In this document: one piece after another, positions 3,861-51,601 of the stretch
How positions within the stretch are numbered: position 1 is the first letter of the stretch
Layout: the number at the start of each line of letters is the position of its first letter
Origin: a virus
Taxonomy: Duplodnaviria; Heunggongvirae; Uroviricota; Caudoviricetes
Direction: 5' to 3' (one strand)
DNA: 64,000 nt
Virus record (IMG/VR): IMGVR_UViG_3300031555_007715
Notes under the pieces: generated by a model
Database searches by the model: none
What the model was told of the DNA's origin: nothing
The model's input: the letters and a program-made list of their open reading frames with translations, nothing else
Program-made: the position numbers and the translations under genes

Positions 3861-4457
3861 ATGACAACAAAGAAGAAAAAAATGTACATTGTAACAAATG
3901 CAACTATTTCAGGGAATTATACTCCGAGTTTATTTGCTAAAAAGGAAGATGCTCGTGACTGGTTTTATGAACTAGCGGTTAATGACCTTATTGACGCTTA
4001 TGATAGTGATATGATTGAAATTTTATGCAATCACGTTAAAAGTGTAGCACAAAATGTTCTTGAAAAGATTGTAACTTATCTATCTGATTTTGATAATGAT
4101 GGGGATGTTATGGCGGGAAAAGATTTAGGTGTAGACAAAAATGCATCTTATATCGCTAAAGGAAGAGAGATTATCGAAGAATTTAATTCTTTGATGAGAA
4201 TAAATGATATTCCATGGGAACTTGATTTCAAGTTCGATGATGCTTATGATTTAGTTGATGAGATTGATTGTTTGAGTGATGTTTTAGAGAATGAAGATAT
4301 TTGTCTTGAAACAATTATGGAAAAAAATAGGGAAAAGTTTTTAGAATATTTTTCTGATAGAATTTCTGGCTTAGAAGTAAGTGAAAATAATATTAGAATT
4401 GAATATTCTGATGATAATTTTAATGATATTGAGTTTTTTGAAACAAATGTAAACTAA
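3861..4457 (+). CDS. Acidic hypothetical protein
   Basis: 198-aa ORF, AAGGAGG RBS. Confidence 0.75.
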   Translation: MTTKKKKMYIVTNATISGNYTPSLFAKKEDARDWFYELAVNDLIDAYDSDMIEILCNHVKSVAQNVLEKIVTYLSDFDNDGDVMAGKDLGVDKNASYIAKGREIIEEFNSLMRINDIPWELDFKFDDAYDLVDEIDCLSDVLENEDICLETIMEKNREKFLEYFSDRISGLEVSENNIRIEYSDDNFNDIEFFETNVN

Positions 4458-4479
4458 ATAAAATAAAGCCAAGGCACAA

Positions 4480-5184
4480 TTAAGCGTCTTGGCTCTTTTT
4501 TATTCTTTTTTTTAACAATATTAAGCTTTTTTCAAGTAACTTTTTATTATTAGTTTTTTCTTTTATTTCTTCAATTTCACAATACCCCCACCAAGAGTCA
4601 TCGTAATTAGAAGCTGTTTCTTTCCATTCTTTTCCTAGCTCGGTTGTAAGTATTGAATAGCATATATAAGTATTATTACCTATTTTGATATCTCCCACAT
4701 ATTTCAAAGAATCCATTTCAGGTGATTCGAAACACATACACATGGAATCGAGAATAGGAAATGCATTTCTATTATTTGTTGGACAAATAGGCAAAGAATA
4801 GTTATCATAATTTATAAATAACATATCATCGCAATCGGCATGTTTACCTAATAATACAAAATACATATTATTATCTTCATCGGGAAATACATCATAAATA
4901 AATTTCATAACAAACCCGTAGTCCCAGCCGCCATAATGTTGATAGTCTTCACAGTGATTATCACAATAATCATAATCACAATTAGCGTCATGAATGCAAT
5001 TATGGCACTTTCTTTCATCAAATGTTGATGTTTTATCTTTAAGTAATTCCCATAGTTCATTTCTATTGTTTGCTATTCCTAAAAATGTATCAGAGTCGTT
5101 ACATTGTTCGCAATATAATTGCTCATAATTTAATTTTTCTTTTGATGCCAAAAGAGTACCCATATGTCCTTCGTAAATATACAT
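4480..5184 (-). CDS. Cys-rich hypothetical protein (possible Zn ribbon)
   Basis: CEQC and CHNCxxxxxCxxxxCxxxC clusters. Confidence 0.65.
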   Translation of the reverse strand: MYIYEGHMGTLLASKEKLNYEQLYCEQCNDSDTFLGIANNRNELWELLKDKTSTFDERKCHNCIHDANCDYDYCDNHCEDYQHYGGWDYGFVMKFIYDVFPDEDNNMYFVLLGKHADCDDMLFINYDNYSLPICPTNNRNAFPILDSMCMCFESPEMDSLKYVGDIKIGNNTYICYSILTTELGKEWKETASNYDDSWWGYCEIEEIKEKTNNKKLLEKSLILLKKRIKKSQDA

Positions 5185-33146: not shown

Positions 33147-36100
33147 TTATTTATTTTTCTTAAAAATCATTCTAATAGCTAATTTTACTTTTGATTCGTT
33201 TGTTATTTTTCTAGGTATAATTTTTGTACTTTCAGAAGCTAATTCATATCTATAGAATTTATTTCTTACAGATGACTCATTTACTACTTCTTCGTTCTTT
33301 ATACCTTTTCTATCTCCTTGAGATACTCTTGATGGAGATATAGCATATGTCTTTCCATCGGCGTTATAAGTAATTATAAAGTTTCCTTCTCCATTATTTT
33401 GAACTCTTATGCTTTTTGCATTGTGAGGAATGCCATATTTTTTAGCAAATGTTCTTAATTGAGGAGATTCTTTTACTGTTCTAAATGAACCGCCGTTTGA
33501 TAATCCCATATTGTACAAATCTCTTCCAATAGCATTTCCAGGCATAGGTTCACAAGTATAAATAGAACCACCAAATTGAACTTTTGCGGAAGAATCACAA
33601 TGAGTAATATTTGTTCCTTCTTTATGCATCAAATATGTTTCTCCTTTATAATAATAAATAAAACTTCCAGTAGGCTGTCCATTTTCATATGTCAAAGGTT
33701 TTATTGTTGCACTTCTCATATTAAACTTTTCTGGAACATCACCATATAGTGTTGAGTCTGGTCTTGCGTAGGAATATCCTTTTGCGTCACGAATGTTTAA
33801 CAAGTTAACCTGTGTTTCTCCATTGTGTGTATTCTCATATTTTGTATAACAAGAGAATCTGTTATTTTTTCCATCAAGTTCTCTAACATCTATTTCCATA
33901 GATTTTCCATCTTTTCCTATAACAGATAATTTACCATGATTATCCAAAGGAACACCCTCACTATTAAATTTTGTTTTTGAGTTATCAACTCTTAATTCCT
34001 GTCCATTATGTTTAACATAAATTGGAGCTTGTGGCTTACCATCGATGTCATTGGAAAATGGTTCTATGGTTTTCTTATAACTATCTCCTGCATATACAGC
34101 AGTAGGTATTTCATTACCTCTTACTGGTCTGTATGACACACTTATATTTGCGTCATCATGTGCGGGTACTACATATTCACCATTTCTTTTTACAACAACG
34201 CTTCCGAATTCAGTTCCATCTTTATAATCATAAGTAGGCACATTACCATGTCTTGTTGATACAGATACCAATGCGCCAGAGGTGTCTTTCATATATCCAC
34301 CATCTCTTGCAGGTTTTCCTTCTATATCATATCTTTGTGCCGATTGAGGTCTAAAGAAACTTCCTTTTTCTGATTTTACTAAATAATCAACAGGTTTGTT
34401 GTCTTCCTCATTATTAGTAAATGATATATGACTATGTTGCATAGTATTACTAGCAACGGATGTAGTATAACTTGACAAATCTGTACTCTTTGTTGTTCTA
34501 ACATATGATTCACCTGATTTGTTTTGTTCTACATTGCTTGATGAAACCATTACCTGCTGTCCCGATGTATTTACAGCAACAGCGCCATTAGACATTTGTG
34601 GATTACCCTCTTTGTCTCTTGTTACAAGATTAGAAGAAACCTCAAAAGATGTGCCCTTTGTATCTGTTGCGATGTATTTTTCTTGCTGTAACTTTCCGTC
34701 TTTTTCAACAAATGTTGCGGTATTGCCACTAGCATCTGTTCCGATATATGTATTGTCTCCAATTTTAGATACACTTGAGTAAGTATTGCCTTTAGCGTCT
34801 CTTATATCAGAATATCCACTATCAGTTTTTGTTGCGGACGATATATCTGAATAGCTTGTTTTTATTCCTTTTGAAGAATCTACTTCTCTCACCGCCTGCG
34901 TTGTATCTATATGTTGAATATTTCCAGATGTATCTCTTACTGAATCATGTACAGCACTAGAAGAAATATTAAACTTGTTACCTGATGTATCTGTAGCAAC
35001 ATAGTTTTCTTTTTGTAAATTACCATATTCATTCATTCTAAAATTAGCGGTATCACCGTTTTCATCTCTTCCAACGTAACTTCCATTAGATTGTTTTCTA
35101 ATGTCTGTATATGTTTTTCCGTCAGAATCAGTTGCACTATATGTACCATTATTATTAGATACGCTAGTGAGATTAGAATATTCTTTTTGTATTCCCTGAG
35201 ACGCATCTATTTGTCTGGACTCAGATATTTTTTGAAGGTTGCCTTTATCGTCATACTTAAAGGTAGCTTCTCTTCCTTCTGCTTTTCCTGTAAAAGTGCC
35301 ATCACCGTTTGATTTGAAATCAGAATAATTTACACCAGTGCTATCTTTTGCAGTTATAGGCATTTTTTCTCTGGTTACATTATCACTGGATATGGTAGAT
35401 GTAGCATCCAGTCTTGTAAAGCTACCATCTTTATTTTCTCTAAATGCAACATTTTCACCTGTTTCTTGATTTTTTCCAATTGCAATACCATTACTATTTG
35501 TAACACCTAATGTGTAGTTGTTACTAGTAGAATCTGTTATTGTTCTAGTTTCTTGAACAGGTGCAGTTATAGGCTGTTCAGCAACCATTGTTGCCGTATT
35601 TTTAGCTTCATCTATCTTAAATTTAGCAGTTGAACCATCTGCGGCTGTTCCGTTTACATATCCGTCTTTATCTGCTTTTCCTGATAAATCATAAGTTTTA
35701 TCACCATAGGATAGTTTATTATCATCTTTGTTATAGCTCTTATCACTTAAACTAATTTCAGATGTTTCAAGTTTTGATAATGAACCATCATCATGTTTAA
35801 CAAGGTCAACTTCTTTGCCACTTCCATCGGATGCAATACCCTTAAATGTTCCGTTTGCTTCTGGCTTATTTAAGTCTACATTATATGATACATTATCTGC
35901 ATCTATAATGCTTGTTTGAGACTGTATGTTACTTGGTGCAATTTGTTCTCCACTAGCAAGTTTTGTAACTGAACCATCATCATTTCTTTCAAATAATGCT
36001 GTGTTGCCTTTGCTATCAACGCCAGAAACAACAGGTGCATCATCACTGAAATTATTATCTAGTCTATATGAATTACCTTCGGAATCTTTTACACTTGTAA

Positions 36101-39100
36101 ATTCTCCGCTTGTTTTAATACTGTCATTTGCAATTTGAGAATATGAACCATCATCATTTTTCTTAAATCTTGTTTCTTCGCCAGTATCTTTGTTGGTACC
36201 AATCATATAACCATTATCGTCAGTTTTTCCAGTTAAGTTATATGTATCGTCACCAATTGTTAAAGATGTTCCTATTGTTTCTTGTACTTGGCTTAACGTT
36301 CCATCATTATTAACAACAAAGTTTTGCTGATTATCAGGGTTTGTTGTTGATGTACCATGAATAATGCCATTTTCGTCTGGTTCACTTAATTTATAAGTTT
36401 CTCCACCAGCGGAAATTGTATTTTCCATAGAAACTGGTTCAGAAATCATGGTGTATGTACCATCACCATTGTCCTTAAATGTAGCAGTCTCTCTGTCTTT
36501 ATTTTCTCCAGTTACAATGCCATTTTCATCTGGTTCACCTAATAAGCTGTATTTTCCTTTTTCGGTGTTATCAGTATTTAATGTTATTGTATTATTTTCA
36601 ATACTAACATCATCATCACTAATAGTTTGAATTGCGGAATATGTGCCGTCACCGTTATCAATAAAGTCTTTTTTGTTTTCTGGGTCTGTTGTTGATACGC
36701 CGTGAATGATGCCATTTTCGTCTTTTTCACCTAATGCAAAAGTTTCATCACCAACTTGAGCGGTTTTTTCTATATTAGCAGGAGGTTCATTTGAAACCAT
36801 TGAATATGAGCCATCGCCATTATTCTTAAATTTAGCTTCTTCTCCTGTTTCTGTATTAACACCAGTTATTAAGCCGTTTTCATCTGGTTCACCAGAAAGC
36901 TTAAAGTCACCATCCGATGTATTTACCGTTGTAGCGTCTTTTACATCGTCTGGAGCAATAGTTTTTTCTACTGCTGATACAGTGCCATCTCCGTTGTTAA
37001 CAAAATCTTTTGTATCATCAGGGTTTGTTGTTGATACTCCATGCATGATATTGTTTTCATCAGGCGCACTCAATTCATAATTATTATCACCATCAACGGC
37101 AGTTTTTGGTAATGTTTGAACATTTTCCTCTTCTATTTTTTCGTCTTGAGGAATTTTTACTACTTCTCCGTTACCTTTATCTATATATTGTGCGGAATTA
37201 CCTTCATCATTTTCTGCTGTAATAACTCCCGCCTCGTCGGTACTTTGTACTTTATATTCGTTATCTCCGTCTTGTATTGATGAGATATTTTCTTTTTCTT
37301 TTAAGTTATCATCAGCAATTTGCTCTTCTGGAGATGATGCGGCAACCATAACATCACTGTTATTTTCATCAAGATTAATATTTCCATTTTCATCAACAGT
37401 ATCTGAAATAATGCTAGCTGGGACGAGCATACCTTCCTCTGTTCCATCATCAATTTTTACATAATCTCCATCCTCTGTCTCATTTCCATTTTCGTCATAT
37501 CTTCTTATTGAATCGCCATTTTCTTCATCTCTGATGATATCATCTTCTTTTATAGATAATTCTCCACCATTTTCTTCTGCTAATTGATTTATTTTTTCTT
37601 TTTCAGCATCGGATAAATTGGAAGAATCTAATTCATCTTTATTTAAGGTAGCATGTGCTCCATCATTTACAGCAACATTTCCTGTTTCTTCCATATTTTC
37701 AGGTCCATTAAGGTCCATATTATTCGCAGAATTATCACCGAATATTGGAACGCCTTCCTGTTTTACGCCGTCAATTTGCATTGCTCCTGTTACACCATAT
37801 GACTCGCCATCTGTTCCTGTTACTGGAATAAATCCTTCATCTGCGTCTGCATCTTTTGTTATTTTTCCAGTAAAAATTGTGCCATTTTCGTTTTCAGCAC
37901 TAAAAGTCATAGTATCAGATTTAGGGTCATATTTAATGTCCGAGTAGTTATAACCTTGTGCTGCCATTTTTTCAACGTTTTCAGCACCGACTCTTGATGC
38001 CATTAGGTCTTTTGCTATATCTTGATATTCTTGTGAATTTTTTGGAGGCATCTTACCTGATGCGGCGTAACTTAATAATTCATCATTTGATAAACCAGAA
38101 TATTTGCCACCAAAGCTAGGTTTTCCGCTTGGTAAACTTCTTAATACCTCAGGAATCTTTGTCACATCTTTAGACAACTTATTTTCTGCCTTGGATAATT
38201 TATTACTGAGTGATTGTAATTTTTTATTACCAGTTTTTTTGGCAAGTGCCCCAATACCTGCGGTTAATGCAGATTTTTCACCCAATCTTCCATCTTTAAA
38301 GCCAGCCATGTGCATAAGGTTTTTATCATTAGGATTTACCTGTCCATTATGACGCATACCCATAGCTCCCGCAAAAGGAATTGCCATATTTCTTCCTGTT
38401 GCTTTATTCATTAATTGCATAGCTCCAGGTAAGCCATTTTGCATTGCATTCATAACGTCCATTCCGAAACCACCAGTTTTTGCGGTTTTTAGTCCTAATG
38501 CATTCATATGTTCATCTATTTTTTGTGCCGTTTTAAACCACGCTATCCATAACAATAAATATGGCGGGCTGGTACTAGCTGCAAATGATTTTATAAATAC
38601 GGTAAGGAAAAATGTTGAAAAAATTAGAACTATACATCCATTTATCAACCAAGAAATCCAATTTTTAAAAACATCTTCAAGTCCTCTAGTTGCACCACAA
38701 GCAATACATACTGGTGCTATAATTGATAATAAACCTAGCATTAAATATCTTTCTGCTAACTCTAGAGCTGTTGCAAAAAAGTTCTTTAATAACATAAAGA
38801 ATAATGTTATAGCCAATGCGCCAGTAATGATTCCTGCCGATGGGGATAATGCTAAAAGTTCATCTCCTATAGTATCATTAGATGGACCTTTTGTTATCAT
38901 ATTTGAAACTACATCTTTCCATACTGCGTCCCCCTCCGCTCGTTGTGTTCCATTAACTATTGCATTGTATGGTATAGTTGTTATGTCAAAAACTAAAGCA
39001 ATAATTGATTGCGAAAATGCTGCTAGTAATGCATAGAAAATTGATTTTATAATAACTCTAGATGGTGCATCTGCGGATGCAAGAGGTCCAAATAGAGCCT

Positions 39101-39356
39101 TAAATAATTGATATATCATGTTTAGGAATATAAGTATAAAAGAAAATATCAAACATATCTTATACATGGCCCCAAATACACCAATATTTCCATTAAAAAC
39201 ACCTGTTTCTTTTCCATTAAAAACAGCGAAAAAATAATCTAATGTTTCTCTTCCATTAAGTCCGAATAAGTTGATTAGAGAATTAGCAAGGGCGCCCATG
39301 ATGATTGCTACACCTTGCATCAATAATTCGACTATGGCTTCAAATATCCAACCCAT
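33147..39356 (-). CDS. 2069-aa extended VirB6/TrbL-like protein with long repetitive C-terminal region
   Basis: N-terminal ~300 aa polytopic with ERY.MLG.L..IAP.C.A.G.T signature; many 45-55-aa repeats (PDENG..G...F.DNGDG). Confidence 0.65.
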   Translation of the reverse strand: MGWIFEAIVELLMQGVAIIMGALANSLINLFGLNGRETLDYFFAVFNGKETGVFNGNIGVFGAMYKICLIFSFILIFLNMIYQLFKALFGPLASADAPSRVIIKSIFYALLAAFSQSIIALVFDITTIPYNAIVNGTQRAEGDAVWKDVVSNMITKGPSNDTIGDELLALSPSAGIITGALAITLFFMLLKNFFATALELAERYLMLGLLSIIAPVCIACGATRGLEDVFKNWISWLINGCIVLIFSTFFLTVFIKSFAASTSPPYLLLWIAWFKTAQKIDEHMNALGLKTAKTGGFGMDVMNAMQNGLPGAMQLMNKATGRNMAIPFAGAMGMRHNGQVNPNDKNLMHMAGFKDGRLGEKSALTAGIGALAKKTGNKKLQSLSNKLSKAENKLSKDVTKIPEVLRSLPSGKPSFGGKYSGLSNDELLSYAASGKMPPKNSQEYQDIAKDLMASRVGAENVEKMAAQGYNYSDIKYDPKSDTMTFSAENENGTIFTGKITKDADADEGFIPVTGTDGESYGVTGAMQIDGVKQEGVPIFGDNSANNMDLNGPENMEETGNVAVNDGAHATLNKDELDSSNLSDAEKEKINQLAEENGGELSIKEDDIIRDEENGDSIRRYDENGNETEDGDYVKIDDGTEEGMLVPASIISDTVDENGNINLDENNSDVMVAASSPEEQIADDNLKEKENISSIQDGDNEYKVQSTDEAGVITAENDEGNSAQYIDKGNGEVVKIPQDEKIEEENVQTLPKTAVDGDNNYELSAPDENNIMHGVSTTNPDDTKDFVNNGDGTVSAVEKTIAPDDVKDATTVNTSDGDFKLSGEPDENGLITGVNTETGEEAKFKNNGDGSYSMVSNEPPANIEKTAQVGDETFALGEKDENGIIHGVSTTDPENKKDFIDNGDGTYSAIQTISDDDVSIENNTITLNTDNTEKGKYSLLGEPDENGIVTGENKDRETATFKDNGDGTYTMISEPVSMENTISAGGETYKLSEPDENGIIHGTSTTNPDNQQNFVVNNDGTLSQVQETIGTSLTIGDDTYNLTGKTDDNGYMIGTNKDTGEETRFKKNDDGSYSQIANDSIKTSGEFTSVKDSEGNSYRLDNNFSDDAPVVSGVDSKGNTALFERNDDGSVTKLASGEQIAPSNIQSQTSIIDADNVSYNVDLNKPEANGTFKGIASDGSGKEVDLVKHDDGSLSKLETSEISLSDKSYNKDDNKLSYGDKTYDLSGKADKDGYVNGTAADGSTAKFKIDEAKNTATMVAEQPITAPVQETRTITDSTSNNYTLGVTNSNGIAIGKNQETGENVAFRENKDGSFTRLDATSTISSDNVTREKMPITAKDSTGVNYSDFKSNGDGTFTGKAEGREATFKYDDKGNLQKISESRQIDASQGIQKEYSNLTSVSNNNGTYSATDSDGKTYTDIRKQSNGSYVGRDENGDTANFRMNEYGNLQKENYVATDTSGNKFNISSSAVHDSVRDTSGNIQHIDTTQAVREVDSSKGIKTSYSDISSATKTDSGYSDIRDAKGNTYSSVSKIGDNTYIGTDASGNTATFVEKDGKLQQEKYIATDTKGTSFEVSSNLVTRDKEGNPQMSNGAVAVNTSGQQVMVSSSNVEQNKSGESYVRTTKSTDLSSYTTSVASNTMQHSHISFTNNEEDNKPVDYLVKSEKGSFFRPQSAQRYDIEGKPARDGGYMKDTSGALVSVSTRHGNVPTYDYKDGTEFGSVVVKRNGEYVVPAHDDANISVSYRPVRGNEIPTAVYAGDSYKKTIEPFSNDIDGKPQAPIYVKHNGQELRVDNSKTKFNSEGVPLDNHGKLSVIGKDGKSMEIDVRELDGKNNRFSCYTKYENTHNGETQVNLLNIRDAKGYSYARPDSTLYGDVPEKFNMRSATIKPLTYENGQPTGSFIYYYKGETYLMHKEGTNITHCDSSAKVQFGGSIYTCEPMPGNAIGRDLYNMGLSNGGSFRTVKESPQLRTFAKKYGIPHNAKSIRVQNNGEGNFIITYNADGKTYAISPSRVSQGDRKGIKNEEVVNESSVRNKFYRYELASESTKIIPRKITNESKVKLAIRMIFKKNK

Positions 39357-39767
39357 AAAAAAAGTTCCTCCTTTTGTTTATTTTTAATTACATAATGGTT
39401 GATTATATGAACTAGGGTTTTATTTTTAATATGTAATTAACTTATTATCAATAATAGTGATTGGTTATATTTCTACTTTTTTTATAAAGAATCAAGATAT
39501 TGAGTTTTATTTTTGAATGTATTCTATATAATGAAAAATAATGAATATGAATTTAATAATTTTAATTCATTTCTTTATATTTTAGTCAATCACCAATAAC
39601 TTTATTATATTATAATAATGATTTAAATACAATATTTTTAAATTAAAAATAAAATATTTTTATTTCAACAACTATATAGCAATATTTTTTTTGATTATTA
39701 ATAGATAATTATTGAAATTTATATAAATAATATTTAGCACAATATTAGGTTTTTTTCAAATTTTTGC

Positions 39768-39797
39768 AAAAAAATAAGCGGTTATTTCAACCGCTTA
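39768..39797 (-). terminator. Rho-independent terminator of the upstream ncRNA
   Basis: TAAGCGGTT/AACCGCTTA stem plus T7 on the minus strand. Confidence 0.8.
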
Positions 39798-39799
39798 AA

Positions 39800-40334
39800 A
39801 CACAGATTCCACGCACCCTCACAAGATATCGCACTCAGAAATTTTTCTGAGTAAGAAATCTAGCGGGGTTAGCTGACGCTATGCGGGGACTACCAGCCAG
39901 GTTATTGCTCATCACCTAAAAGATGATTTGTAATAAGTCTAGCCACACCATTTTGTCAAATGGTATGTTTGGCGATTTCTTCTGGCCTAAGGATTCCTCC
40001 TTCCCGATAAAATCGGCATCATGATGTACAGTATCATGACGGAGCATCGAATTCTGTGCAGGATTGCTATCTCGGGTTTCTAGTCCTCAGCTTTCTGCAT
40101 ATCTGTGTCAAATATATACATAAAGTCGAGGGAAACAAAGAAACAATCCCAAGACAATATTTAGTTATTAACATTAGACGTGTAAACACATCCAATGTCC
40201 CGCTTCACTTAAAAATCCTTACAAGGATTAATGAGTAGGCTACGGGAAAGCCTTTTTTACGTTTAAGTTTTTCTCTCATCACATAAAAGACTTTCGTCTT
40301 TTTTAAACTACACATGTAATAAGATAAACTTTGT
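39800..40334 (-). ncRNA. Large structured ncRNA of about 530 nt, family not recognised
   Basis: GC-rich island without a credible ORF; many hairpins with minus-strand G-U pairs; GAAA tetraloop; ACACAGAT/ATCTGTGT long-range helix; own promoter and terminator. Confidence 0.7.
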
Positions 40335-40340
40335 ATTTAT

Positions 40341-40369
40341 ATTATATTATTTTTTAAAATATAAATCAA
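40341..40369 (-). promoter_or_regulatory. sigmaA promoter for the ncRNA
   Basis: TTGATT-17-TATAAT (region is very AT-rich). Confidence 0.55.
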
Positions 40370-40474
40370 ATTAATAATTATATCAATTATTATTTGTATT
40401 GTATTTTTGTTATTCTTTTTGTATAATTTAGTTATATAAATTTAAAAAATTTTTAAGAAAAAGAGAGTGTTTAT

Positions 40475-41743
40475 ATGAAAAATAAAATTATTAAATTTAT
40501 CGATTTATTTGCGGGGCTAGGGGGAATTCGAATAGGATTTCAACAAGCAGCAAATAATTGTGGATATAAAACTGAATGTGTTTTTTCATCAGAAATAAAA
40601 GAGTATGCAATAAAAATGTATAAAAAATATTTTAATGAAGAAACAGTTTATGGAGATATTACTAAAATAAAGTCAGAAGATATTCCTGATTTTGATTTTT
40701 TGCTTGCGGGCTTTCCTTGCCAGCCTTTTAGTTCGGCGGGCAAGGGGTTGGGATTCTCTGATACAAGAGGAACAATGTTTTTTCAGATTGAACGAATTCT
40801 TAAAGATAAAAAACCGTTTGGATTTCTATTAGAAAATGTAGACGGATTAGTTAATCATGATAACGGGAATACCTTTTCAATAATTATTTCACATTTAAGA
40901 GATTTAGGGTACAATGTATCATGGAAAATTCTTAATTCTAAAGATTTTGGGCTAGCTCAAAGCAGAAAGAGAATTTACATAGTAGGGACAAAAGATAGAG
41001 AAATATTATTAAATGATTTTAAGACCAGTTCTGCTAAATTAAGAGATGTATTAGAGAAAAACTTACCAACTGTGAATAATGAATTCACAAGGTGCTTATT
41101 TGAAAATTATACTGTTAATGAAATAATTGGTAAATCTATTAAAGATAAAAGAGGGGGAAAAAACAATATTCATTCATGGGATATTGGATTAAAGGGAATA
41201 GTTACTGACGATGAGAAAGAACTTCTTAACATATTATTAAAAGAACGAAGAAAGAAAAAATGGGCGAAGGAAATAGGTATCACATGGATGGATGGAATGC
41301 CATTGACTATTGAACAAATAAAAACATTTTATAATAAAATAAATTTAGAAGAAATTTTGAGTTCCTTAATAAGTAAAGGATATTTAAGACTAGAATATCC
41401 TAAAGAATTAGTAAATGGTAAAAGAGTTTATGATGAGAATAAGCCTAAGGGTTATAATATTGTAAGCGGAAAACTATCTTTTGAATTTTCTGAAATATTA
41501 AATCCTAACGAAGTAGCGCCAACACTAGTTGCAACAGATATTTCAAAACTTGGAGTCGTTGATTGCGGGGGATTAAGAAGACTTACAATCAGAGAAATTT
41601 GTAGATTATTTGGATTTCCTGATGATTATGATTTATCAGACATAAAAGAACACGAAGCAGTAGATTTATTAGGAAATACTGTTTGTATTCCTGTTATTAA
41701 AGCAATTTCAGAGAAAATAATAAAAAATATGCCATGTATTTAA
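40475..41743 (+). CDS. DNA (cytosine-5)-methyltransferase, orphan, NlaIV/BanI-like
   Basis: DLFAGLGG, GFPCQPFS, LLENV, QSRKRIYIVG; variable region KDKRGGKNNIHSWDI recalled as M.NlaIV-like. Confidence 0.93.
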   Translation: MKNKIIKFIDLFAGLGGIRIGFQQAANNCGYKTECVFSSEIKEYAIKMYKKYFNEETVYGDITKIKSEDIPDFDFLLAGFPCQPFSSAGKGLGFSDTRGTMFFQIERILKDKKPFGFLLENVDGLVNHDNGNTFSIIISHLRDLGYNVSWKILNSKDFGLAQSRKRIYIVGTKDREILLNDFKTSSAKLRDVLEKNLPTVNNEFTRCLFENYTVNEIIGKSIKDKRGGKNNIHSWDIGLKGIVTDDEKELLNILLKERRKKKWAKEIGITWMDGMPLTIEQIKTFYNKINLEEILSSLISKGYLRLEYPKELVNGKRVYDENKPKGYNIVSGKLSFEFSEILNPNEVAPTLVATDISKLGVVDCGGLRRLTIREICRLFGFPDDYDLSDIKEHEAVDLLGNTVCIPVIKAISEKIIKNMPCI

Positions 41744-50924: not shown

Positions 50925-50970
50925 GAAAATGCATCCGATATCCTGTTTTTAAACAAAACATCGAATGCAT
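50925..50970 (-). terminator. Terminator-like hairpin 3' of the ROOL-like RNA
   Basis: ATGCATTCGAT/ATCGGATGCAT stem with minus-strand G-U pair, then TTTTC. Confidence 0.65.
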
Positions 50971-50980
50971 ATCAAACAAA

Positions 50981-51563
50981 TATAGATTCAGACCTTCGTC
51001 TTATTCCTCGCTAATTCTCATTTCTTCGGCCACTGTGCAAACAAGTCTGAGCCAATAATTCGTCAACTATTAACTTCTTGCCTGAACCTTTCGGTTATAA
51101 TCACAAAGAGGATTGGTTACCTCTAAATTTCACAAACCATTCAGATAATTTTATTATAGAAAAAGTAAATCATTTCTCTTCGTTAATTTATTTTCTTCTA
51201 TCTAAGAATGTTATCTTAAGCATGTCTTTGCTACTTTTACTTGGCTCTTACCTTATAGTATGTTTCCATACATCACGACATATCCCATTGTTTGGTGTTC
51301 CCAGCGTTTTCACTATTTTACCAGAATAGGGCTACTGGGTTCTTCTCTTCACGAGCGTCTATTGTTGGGACGGTAAGTTCAATGCCTTAATGAGCTCAAC
51401 AAAGATACACAAAGCCTTTTTGTTGAGGGGTTCCCCTCTTCTCATCATTACTCACATAATGATGACAGCTCTCTCCTTCAAGTATCCTTAAAAGCATTTA
51501 CTGTTATTCAGCCTTTCTCGGAAGGAGTGGTTAGCTCCCTTATGCACCGAGGTGAATCTGTAT
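50981..51563 (-). ncRNA. ROOL-like large ornate RNA (about 580 nt)
   Basis: Ends pair (AGATTCA/TGAATCT); length matches ROOL; blocks such as GCCAAGTAAAAGTAGCAAAGAC, CTGAATGGT, GGCTCAGACTT..GCACAGT recalled as ROOL-like. Confidence 0.75.
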
Positions 51564-51572
51564 TGTAGATAT

Positions 51573-51601
51573 ATAATATCATTTAATATTGTTTTTGTCA
51601 A
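51573..51601 (-). promoter_or_regulatory. Strong sigmaA promoter for the ROOL-like RNA
   Basis: TTGACA-17-TATTAT with TG extension. Confidence 0.8.

Follow-up and report, generated by a model that had tools for sequence, protein, structure and literature searches.

A probable uncatalogued family of large structured RNAs on a rare lineage of RNA-rich mobile elements

The 64,000-nucleotide (nt) stretch of DNA analysed here at its full length (the window), the virus record IMGVR_UViG_3300031555_007715 (Caudoviricetes), contains an island of elevated GC content upstream of a giant membrane protein gene related to VirB6/TrbL, and this locus raises two questions: does the island encode a large structured RNA absent from the catalogues, and does such an RNA act on its own or as the leader of the gene behind it? 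An earlier reading of the letters and their open reading frames (ORFs) (the sequence-only reading) had proposed a new large non-coding RNA with its own promoter and terminator. Our analysis indicates that the island very probably belongs to a real, conserved and structured RNA family outside Rfam. We further lean towards the reading that this is an uncatalogued family of large structured non-coding RNAs of 430-600 nt, whose carriers are large, uncultivated, RNA-rich mobile elements of a rare lineage, and that each RNA is a separate unit acting in trans.

The GC content is 0.34-0.44 across 39700-40300 and falls to 0.10-0.16 in the spacers on both flanks, and no ORF of more than 43 amino acids (aa) is found on the RNA strand of the island, which bears out its description as a GC-elevated non-coding island. 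The predicted RNA as a whole occupies 39768..40334 on the minus strand (about 565 nt, terminator included), as judged from its fold, the GC island, the lack of a conserved ORF and the lack of an Rfam match. Indeed, the longest ORFs of the five distinct family members lie at non-homologous positions, and none of them is conserved. The minus strand folds with a minimum free energy (MFE) of -195.9 kcal/mol (z -9.93), a value equalled by 0 of 100 dinucleotide shuffles, while the plus strand reaches -154.4 kcal/mol (z -5.4), 41 kcal/mol weaker. This asymmetry indicates that the structure is strand-specific, as expected for an RNA with G-U pairs. Two other members, at the metagenome contig loci L001 and L008 (L-numbers denote such loci throughout), gave fold z-scores of -7.4 and -10.2, respectively.

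The window was searched by cmscan with all 4227 models of Rfam 15, including ROOL, GOLLD, OLE, HEARO, raiA, group I and II introns, RNase P, tmRNA, 6S and the riboswitches. At the gathering score, the whole window yielded only ROOL and 16 tRNAs, and the island had no match. The ROOL, at 50970-51575 (322.5 bits), lies 11 kb from the new RNA and confirms that the element is ROOL-bearing, as the sequence-only reading had stated. When the threshold was relaxed to E<=10 on 39500-40500, the sole match was a 25-nt, 17.6-bit hit to a CRISPR repeat model, which we regard as noise, so that the proposed cmscan check returned no Rfam family, the group I intron included. The loci L001, L002 and L008 were likewise without a match at E<=1. 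Searches of sequenced phages and plasmids with the window copy, L002 and L008 found no similarity, pattern scans of viral, metagenome and genome contigs with the conserved motifs gave chance matches only, mostly inside coding regions, and we located no description of such an RNA in the literature.

Relatives of the RNA were traced via homologues of the downstream 2069-aa protein, and contigs (ENA, Logan and JGI) were examined for 12 proteins. Among 5.8 billion proteins, the relatives of this protein formed 19 clusters at 90% identity, several of them with PF04610 (TrbL/VirB6), and this giant VirB6/TrbL-like family (the window protein and its relatives P0002-P0019) is well conserved over its first ~300 aa only. 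The family was absent from IMG/VR, none was found in GTDB representative genomes, and searches of viral and genome contig collections with the 2069-aa protein, or with an alignment of its N-terminal domain, gave no relatives. A distant homologue of 236 aa is located inside a type IV secretion system cluster (pilin-like protein, C39 peptidase and PrgI) of the Vescimonas fastidiosa megaplasmid pMM35_02. The loci L003-L006 are identical copies of the window, and four further distinct RNAs were found, all syntenic, co-oriented, directly upstream of a VirB6-like gene and terminator-ended. The homologue at L001:4960-5620 is a long form like the window copy (nhmmer E 1.8e-14; ~73% identity in alignable columns), and the short forms at L002:540-990, L008:9380-9870 (L009 is identical) and L089:381-960 (79% identical to L008) were found by shared blocks. 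Together with the empty Rfam searches of this copy and three relatives and the covariation described below, the syntenic homologues in four elements uphold the claim of an undescribed large structured non-coding RNA.

All five members share a core of ~310-340 nt with the same collinear helices in differing sequences. The core is bounded by a long-range closing helix (CL) of 8-10 base pairs (bp), which spans 309-340 nt in all five members and whose sequences differ (ACACAGAU, AAACAGAU, AAGACGAGCA, UUGUAUGG and CCGUAUGG, each with its complement). In the window, the CL 5' strand ACACAGAU (40101..40108, minus) immediately precedes a semi-conserved (A)GAUG block, and its partner, the CL 3' strand AUCUGUGU (39800..39807, minus), directly follows the helix PI. 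Three-way junction 1 (39892..39973, minus) comprises PJ (GCCA/UGGU), H1 and a variable hairpin H2, followed by an invariant UAG. PJ has a G-U closing pair and 3-5 more pairs, with a conserved GUCG/AUCG block as the 5' side of the junction, and the 8-bp H1 carries the loop UUGACAAA in the window and GAC(A) in the loop of all members, on stems of different sequence (CAUACCAU, CAUACUGU, CAUUGUUC, AGAAAC and AGAAAA, each with its complement). Three-way junction 2 (39809..39888, minus) is formed by PI (CCCCGCA/UGCGUGG), PII (UAGC-GUCA-GCUA) and the long hairpin PIII. PI reads CCCCGCA/UGCGUGG, CCUAACA/UGUUAGG, GUGAUAGA/UCUAUCAC or CGCA/UGCG among the members, and the tip of PIII, an 8-bp stem in the window, is UUUC-GAAA-GAAA in four of them. 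PII is the most conserved motif, unique in the window, with the near-invariant form UAGY-GUCA-RCUA and a loop that is always GUCA. The GAC of the H1 loop is complementary to the GUC of the PII loop, and both are invariant in all five members.

The part of the RNA upstream of junction 1 is more variable. The conserved block CUGCACAG (40054..40061, minus) is present in the window, L002, L008 and L089 and is replaced by CCACACAG in L001. It may pair with UGCAG at 40095-40099, as UGCAG/CUGCA in the window corresponds to UGUGG/CCACA in L001 with two compensatory changes, but this pairing is topologically inconsistent with the short forms. A hairpin whose loop contains the self-complementary UGUACA (40017..40040, minus) has the loop AUACUGUACA invariant between the window and L001 on different stems (GUCAUGAU/AUCAUGAU versus CCGUU/AACGG). 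A small hairpin with a GGAA tetraloop (39989..40002, minus) recurs at the same relative position in the window (AAGGA-GGAA-UCCUU), L001 (GGAG-GAAU-CUCC, sharing the core GGAGGAAUC with the window) and L002 (CAGA-GAAA-UCUG). Finally, a 5' extension (40109..40334, minus; 230-285 nt) comprising about five hairpins is shared by the window and L001 only, and its stems differ in sequence while pairing is kept, for example AAUCCUU/AAGGAUU versus UCUUCUU/AAGAAGA. It includes an unpaired A-rich block (40259-40277), of which 19 nt are identical in L001; the block is unique in the window, and no target for it was found elsewhere in the window. The short forms L002, L008 and L089 lack both the 5' extension and the AUACUGUACA hairpin.

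Every helix listed in the sequence-only reading is present in the sequence, and comparison with the relatives separates those that are kept from those that are not. The pairings CAUACCAU/AUGGUGUG (H1), ACUCAGAAA/UUUCUGAGU (the PIII tip) and ACACAGAU/AUCUGUGU (CL) are conserved with compensatory change, and the UCAUGAU/AUCAUGA hairpin and GAC-GAAA-GUC are kept in L001 with different stem sequences. The long-range pair AGAAAUC/GAUUUCU and the pseudoknot GGACUA/UAGUCC, both proposed in the same list, are not conserved in L001 and found no support.

We then examined the conservation of structure with a covariance model of the 3' half (R1), built from the window, L001 and L002 on a hand-drawn structure of 161 positions and 34 pairs. 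R1 found junction 2 of L008 and L089, which had been left out of the model, at E ~1e-5. Beyond these, it gave no credible match in the window, the ROOL locus included, or in 19 other loci, and it detected no copies in L082, L088, the RNA-less loci, a faecal 'Bacteriophage sp.' contig or the stretch of the Vescimonas plasmid. In the five-sequence alignment of the 3' half, standard pairs fill 96.2% of the cells, a share that drops to 29-45% once the 3' partners are shifted by 1-3 columns; double-sided changes occur in 16 of the 34 pairs as against 0-4 after the shift, and none of 500 column shuffles reaches the observed values. H1 is 100% paired with both sides changed in five of its eight pairs, and PI has both sides changed in six of seven. 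Furthermore, the free MFE structure of L008 projected onto L089, a check free of alignment-to-model bias, gave 13 double-compensatory pairs versus 3.8 expected and 29 broken pairs versus 44 (permutation P<0.001). Enforcing the shared helices costs only 0.6-2.1 kcal/mol over the free MFE in L001, L002 and L089. Covariation, which had been suggested as a check, thus supports the 3' half in five members and the structure of the L008/L089 pair.

The RNA is bounded by predicted transcription signals on both sides. A promoter-like site, TTGATT-17-TATAAT (40341..40369, minus; 10/12 match), places the predicted transcription start near 40334, and sequence similarity between the window and L001 in their alignment begins at this site. 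Upstream of the L001 RNA, the site at L001:4935-4963 has identical hexamers and spacing, TTGATT-17-TATAAT. At the other end, an intrinsic terminator (39768..39797, minus) consists of a 10-bp stem at 39797-39775 and a following U-tract, in a region with three terminator-like sites versus 0.2 expected from shuffles. In all five members, the intrinsic terminator lies 2-12 nt from the CL 3' strand. The proposal of an own promoter and terminator is thus matched by predicted sites, with the promoter hexamers repeated in L001 and the terminator in every member. The features generally expected of an independent non-coding RNA gene, namely a promoter-like site (window and L001), terminators (all five), the lack of a conserved ORF and covariation, are all found here, and the combination of an own promoter-like site in the window and L001 with a terminator in all five members argues that the RNA is a unit separate from the VirB6/TrbL-like gene.

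Downstream of the terminator lies the gene for the 2069-aa VirB6/TrbL-like giant membrane protein (33147..39356, minus), which agrees with the earlier placement of the RNA upstream of conjugation-like genes. This gene has its own promoter-like site, TTAAAA-16-TATAAT, at 39429-39402, between the RNA terminator and the start codon. In all four relatives, a TTGAC(A/T)-17-TAAnAT site (L001:5631-5659, L002:1026-1054, L008:9864-9892 and L089:949-977) stands between the RNA and the VirB6-like start, 31-49 nt downstream of the terminator and 100-130 nt from the start, and we take it for the probable promoter of the VirB6-like gene. At the corresponding position, the window has a weaker look-alike, besides the TTAAAA-16-TATAAT site nearer the gene. 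The terminator-to-start distance is ~410 nt in the window, 200 nt in L001, 190 nt in L002, 175 nt in L008 and 210 nt in L089. We searched for a conserved antiterminator in the five members and found none: duplexes of the terminator arms with upstream RNA are weak (-6 to -10 kcal/mol), scattered and at non-homologous positions, and complementarity between the RNA and the downstream 5' untranslated region (UTR) is no better than with shuffled UTRs. Since there is no conserved antiterminator and a promoter-like site follows the terminator, we read the RNA as a separate RNA and not as a leader, and on these sequence signals it is probably an independent, trans-acting unit.

Several observations weigh against this interpretation. 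The covariation alignment was fitted to R1 and has five rows only, and the five distinct sequences, from 3-4 lineages, do not suffice for a significance test of the R-scape type. Between long and short forms, the 5' half of the core is not confidently alignable, and the homology-based fold lies 19 kcal/mol (window) and 12 kcal/mol (L008) above the MFE. CL taken alone is not significant in the window, L001 and L002 (205, 76 and 79 of 500 shuffles); in L008 and L089 it reaches significance (2 and 15 of 500 shuffles), and we accept it because of its constant span and position and because of two compensatory changes, C-G to A-U from the window to L001 and U-A to C-G from L008 to L089. As for independence, no clear promoter was found upstream of the L002, L008 and L089 copies. 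The RNA is also dispensable for the neighbouring gene, as five related loci (L007, L010, L080, L081 and L090) have no room for it; L080 keeps the NrtR-isochorismatase-VirB6-like gene order without the RNA, which makes the RNA an accessory feature. Moreover, the members share descent, and their constant adjacency to the VirB6-like gene may reflect history and not function.

The main rival explanation, which we consider unlikely, is that the RNA is a cis-acting leader or attenuator of a transfer-type operon, in which a signal (a ligand, a protein or an antisense RNA) decides the passage of the terminator into the VirB6-like gene. The plasmids pLS20, with its zipper-type attenuator, and pCF10, with the prgQ leader, use attenuation of this kind. 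We keep this rival in view because of the strict co-orientation and the missing clear promoters of the short forms: the RNA lies directly upstream of the VirB6-like gene on the same strand and ends in a terminator in all five members, and two further loci, L082 and L088, carry other large structured, terminator-ended regions in the same slot. Long structured attenuator leaders also precede conjugation operons of Gram-positive plasmids (PMC13401043). In the pLS20 system (cATT), 0-26 bp separate the terminator from the Shine-Dalgarno sequence, and the complementarity of the terminator to a stem upstream of it allows an antiterminator to form (PMC13401043). The new RNA resembles cATT as a long, structured, co-oriented RNA with an intrinsic terminator upstream of transfer genes. 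However, its terminator lies 140-410 nt from the gene, with promoter-like sites between in the four relatives and the window, and its terminator hairpin stands apart from the core, with no homologously placed complement to either arm and hence no conserved antiterminator complementarity. The 5' UTR complementarity at the level of shuffled UTRs and the five RNA-less loci, where related genes function without such a leader, further argue against attenuation.

A second alternative, very improbable in our judgement, is that the island is a structured single-stranded DNA signal for transfer or replication (an origin of transfer, a single-strand initiation site or a single-stranded DNA promoter) and not an RNA. 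Transfer-type genes adjoin, the structure is strand-specific and a Rep3 replication gene lies 4 kb away in L001, as such a signal might have it. The region is nevertheless bounded by a promoter-like site and a hairpin/U-tract terminator, the latter in every member, and it conserves GNRA-type tetraloops (GAAA in PIII; GGAA/GAAA hairpins). Its many G-U pairs and two multi-helix junctions fit a folded RNA and not nick sites or single-strand initiation hairpins, and no relaxase gene is adjacent.

It is still less credible that the RNA belongs, in strongly diverged form, to one of the known classes of large RNA (ROOL, GOLLD, OLE, HEARO, raiA, a group I or II intron, RNase P or tmRNA). The size is similar, the element is of the kind that carries ROOL, with one only 11 kb away, and the conserved 3' and variable 5' regions recall GOLLD (Kretsch et al.). 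These points are outweighed by the cmscan results, which are empty, noise aside, at E<=10 here and at E<=1 in L001, L002 and L008, although the same search gives the true ROOL of the window 322 bits; conversely, R1 misses ROOL. Equally hard to credit is that the fold has no function or arose by chance, for instance in the remains of a decaying gene or in a spacer with an odd composition: this would suit the handful of copies and the five related elements without the RNA, but not the helices kept through double substitutions among members that share little primary sequence, the invariant loop motifs, the lack of a coding signal and the extreme fold z-scores in three members.

Returning to the preferred reading of a separate, trans-acting RNA, we propose the following mechanism from the predicted features. 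The sigma-70-type promoter would start the RNA in the window and L001, and the intrinsic terminator would end it in all five members. The transcript would then fold so that CL clamps two three-way-junction modules (PJ-H1-H2 and PI-PII-PIII) in a core of ~310-340 nt, preceded by a variable 5' extension that is long in the window and L001. On this prediction the RNA would be stable, and its shape would let it work in trans as a compact structural RNA, either a protein scaffold or an RNA-only assembly for the transfer-type membrane module of the element; it would not switch the downstream gene. The unpaired motifs that hardly vary (the GACA loop, the GUCA loop, UAG, CUGCACAG and the UGUACA of the long forms) might provide contacts within the fold, between molecules or to proteins. 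A role as a scaffold or assembly is a tentative proposal.

ROOL and GOLLD form RNA-only cages larger than a ribosome via kissing loops and A-minor contacts (Kretsch et al.). The new RNA shares with ROOL (RF03087) and GOLLD (RF01998) a size of ~0.5-0.8 kb, a stand-alone gene with promoter and terminator, a location on tRNA-rich mobile elements (ROOL even in the same window), many junctions and conserved unpaired nucleotides, and with GOLLD in particular the combination of a variable 5' with a conserved 3' region. Its self-complementary UGUACA loop in the window and L001 recalls the self-interacting kissing loops of their cages, and this loop, together with the complementary GAC and GUC loops, hints at a homo-oligomeric assembly of the ROOL/GOLLD kind. 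In contrast, covariance models reveal no sequence or structure similarity, the ROOL model (574 positions) being silent on the new RNA, and the predicted architecture consists of two three-way junctions within one closing helix. Unlike ROOL and GOLLD, the new RNA also lies away from the tRNA array at a fixed place upstream of the VirB6/TrbL-like gene, and it is far rarer, with five distinct sequences found.

A different precedent is OLE (RF01071), a ~600-nt structured RNA encoded beside the gene for a polytopic membrane protein, as in the present case. OLE forms a membrane-associated ribonucleoprotein (PMC10898510) and offers an example of an RNA working with a neighbouring membrane protein. 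The new RNA has no homology to OLE and no Oap-like genes are present here, OLE is chromosomal and occurs in extremophilic and anaerobic Bacillota, and elements related to ours retain the membrane protein gene without the new RNA. The giant polytopic VirB6-like protein, the constant neighbour of the new RNA, is the obvious candidate partner, but as VirB6-like relatives exist without the RNA, any RNA-protein link is not obligatory. A broader and more doubtful possibility is that we see here a new large ornate RNA class of rare giant RNA-rich extrachromosomal elements, which would work with the VirB6-like protein or the transfer apparatus, as a membrane-tethered ribonucleoprotein or an RNA-only multimer held by conserved loops; the position upstream of the VirB6-like gene would then be a dedicated RNA slot, taken in other elements by RNAs of 950 nt (L082) and 1350 nt (L088), which with this family brings its seemingly unrelated occupants to three or more.

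To our knowledge, only a very small number of large RNAs with a complex fold but without known function have been described from bacteria or mobile elements, namely OLE, GOLLD, ROOL, HEARO and raiA, and each of these has rewarded closer work. The present RNA would add to them a family of distinct architecture, and the elements bearing it encode ROOL, tRNA arrays, tRNA-like RNAs and RNA-repair genes as well. What is new is a family without a detectable relative; what is of a known kind is a large structured RNA on a mobile element. Its fixed place before a giant transfer-type membrane protein gene offers a concrete handle on function, which ROOL and GOLLD lack, and the L082 and L088 regions in the same slot suggest a wider link between large RNAs and the VirB6-like module. 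The element of the window encodes, besides ROOL and the 16-tRNA array, PcfJ-family genes, GGDEF and EAL signalling genes, Sir2, MYG1 and an RNA ligase-phosphoesterase pair, with the NrtR and isochorismatase genes next to the RNA, and the L001 contig carries the Rep3 replication gene.

Of the two other regions in the slot, the one in L082 is a ~950-nt GC-elevated stretch without called genes (L082:236-1190) directly upstream of a 1765-aa VirB6-like gene; it is terminator-ended, folds with z -9.1, has no Rfam match at E<=1 and shows faint echoes of the family motifs (AUAGAUAGU..., UUCGAAAGA and GGUCGCCA), undetected by R1. In L088, ~1350 nt of 40-52% GC (L088:3513-4890) lie upstream of a 1181-aa VirB6-like gene and close with a strong terminator. 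The longest ORF there is 97 aa, the fold z-score is -5.6 (3900-4890), and neither an Rfam family nor similarity to L082 or the new RNA was found; this region may be another large RNA in the same slot.

We also noted a peculiarity at the start of the VirB6-like genes of the short-form loci, where the frame is open upstream of the called ATG (L002:1138-1170, L008:9971-10003 and L089:1078-1110). The residues encoded there are homologous to the N-terminus of the window protein (AWLFEKVVEIIMEG versus GWIFEAIVELLMQG), and ATC occupies the place where the window and L001 have ATG, at the normal distance from the GGAGG site. A programmed frameshift at the start of these three genes was considered and rejected, as the frame is open and ATC stands at the ATG place; ATC is possibly a conserved non-canonical start in L002, L008 and L089.

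On its other side, the RNA is flanked by a divergent gene for a C5 cytosine DNA methylase (40475-41743, plus; PF00145), an insertion that parts the RNA from the isochorismatase gene in the window element. At the corresponding position, L001 has no methylase but only a 77-aa ORF, and L008 has a 246-aa ORF. Read on the plus strand, the E2 hairpin complement together with the conserved A-rich block (40237-40253) resembles a terminator, with a hairpin followed by a T-run; it was unscored in the L001 scan and could halt antisense transcription towards the methylase gene.

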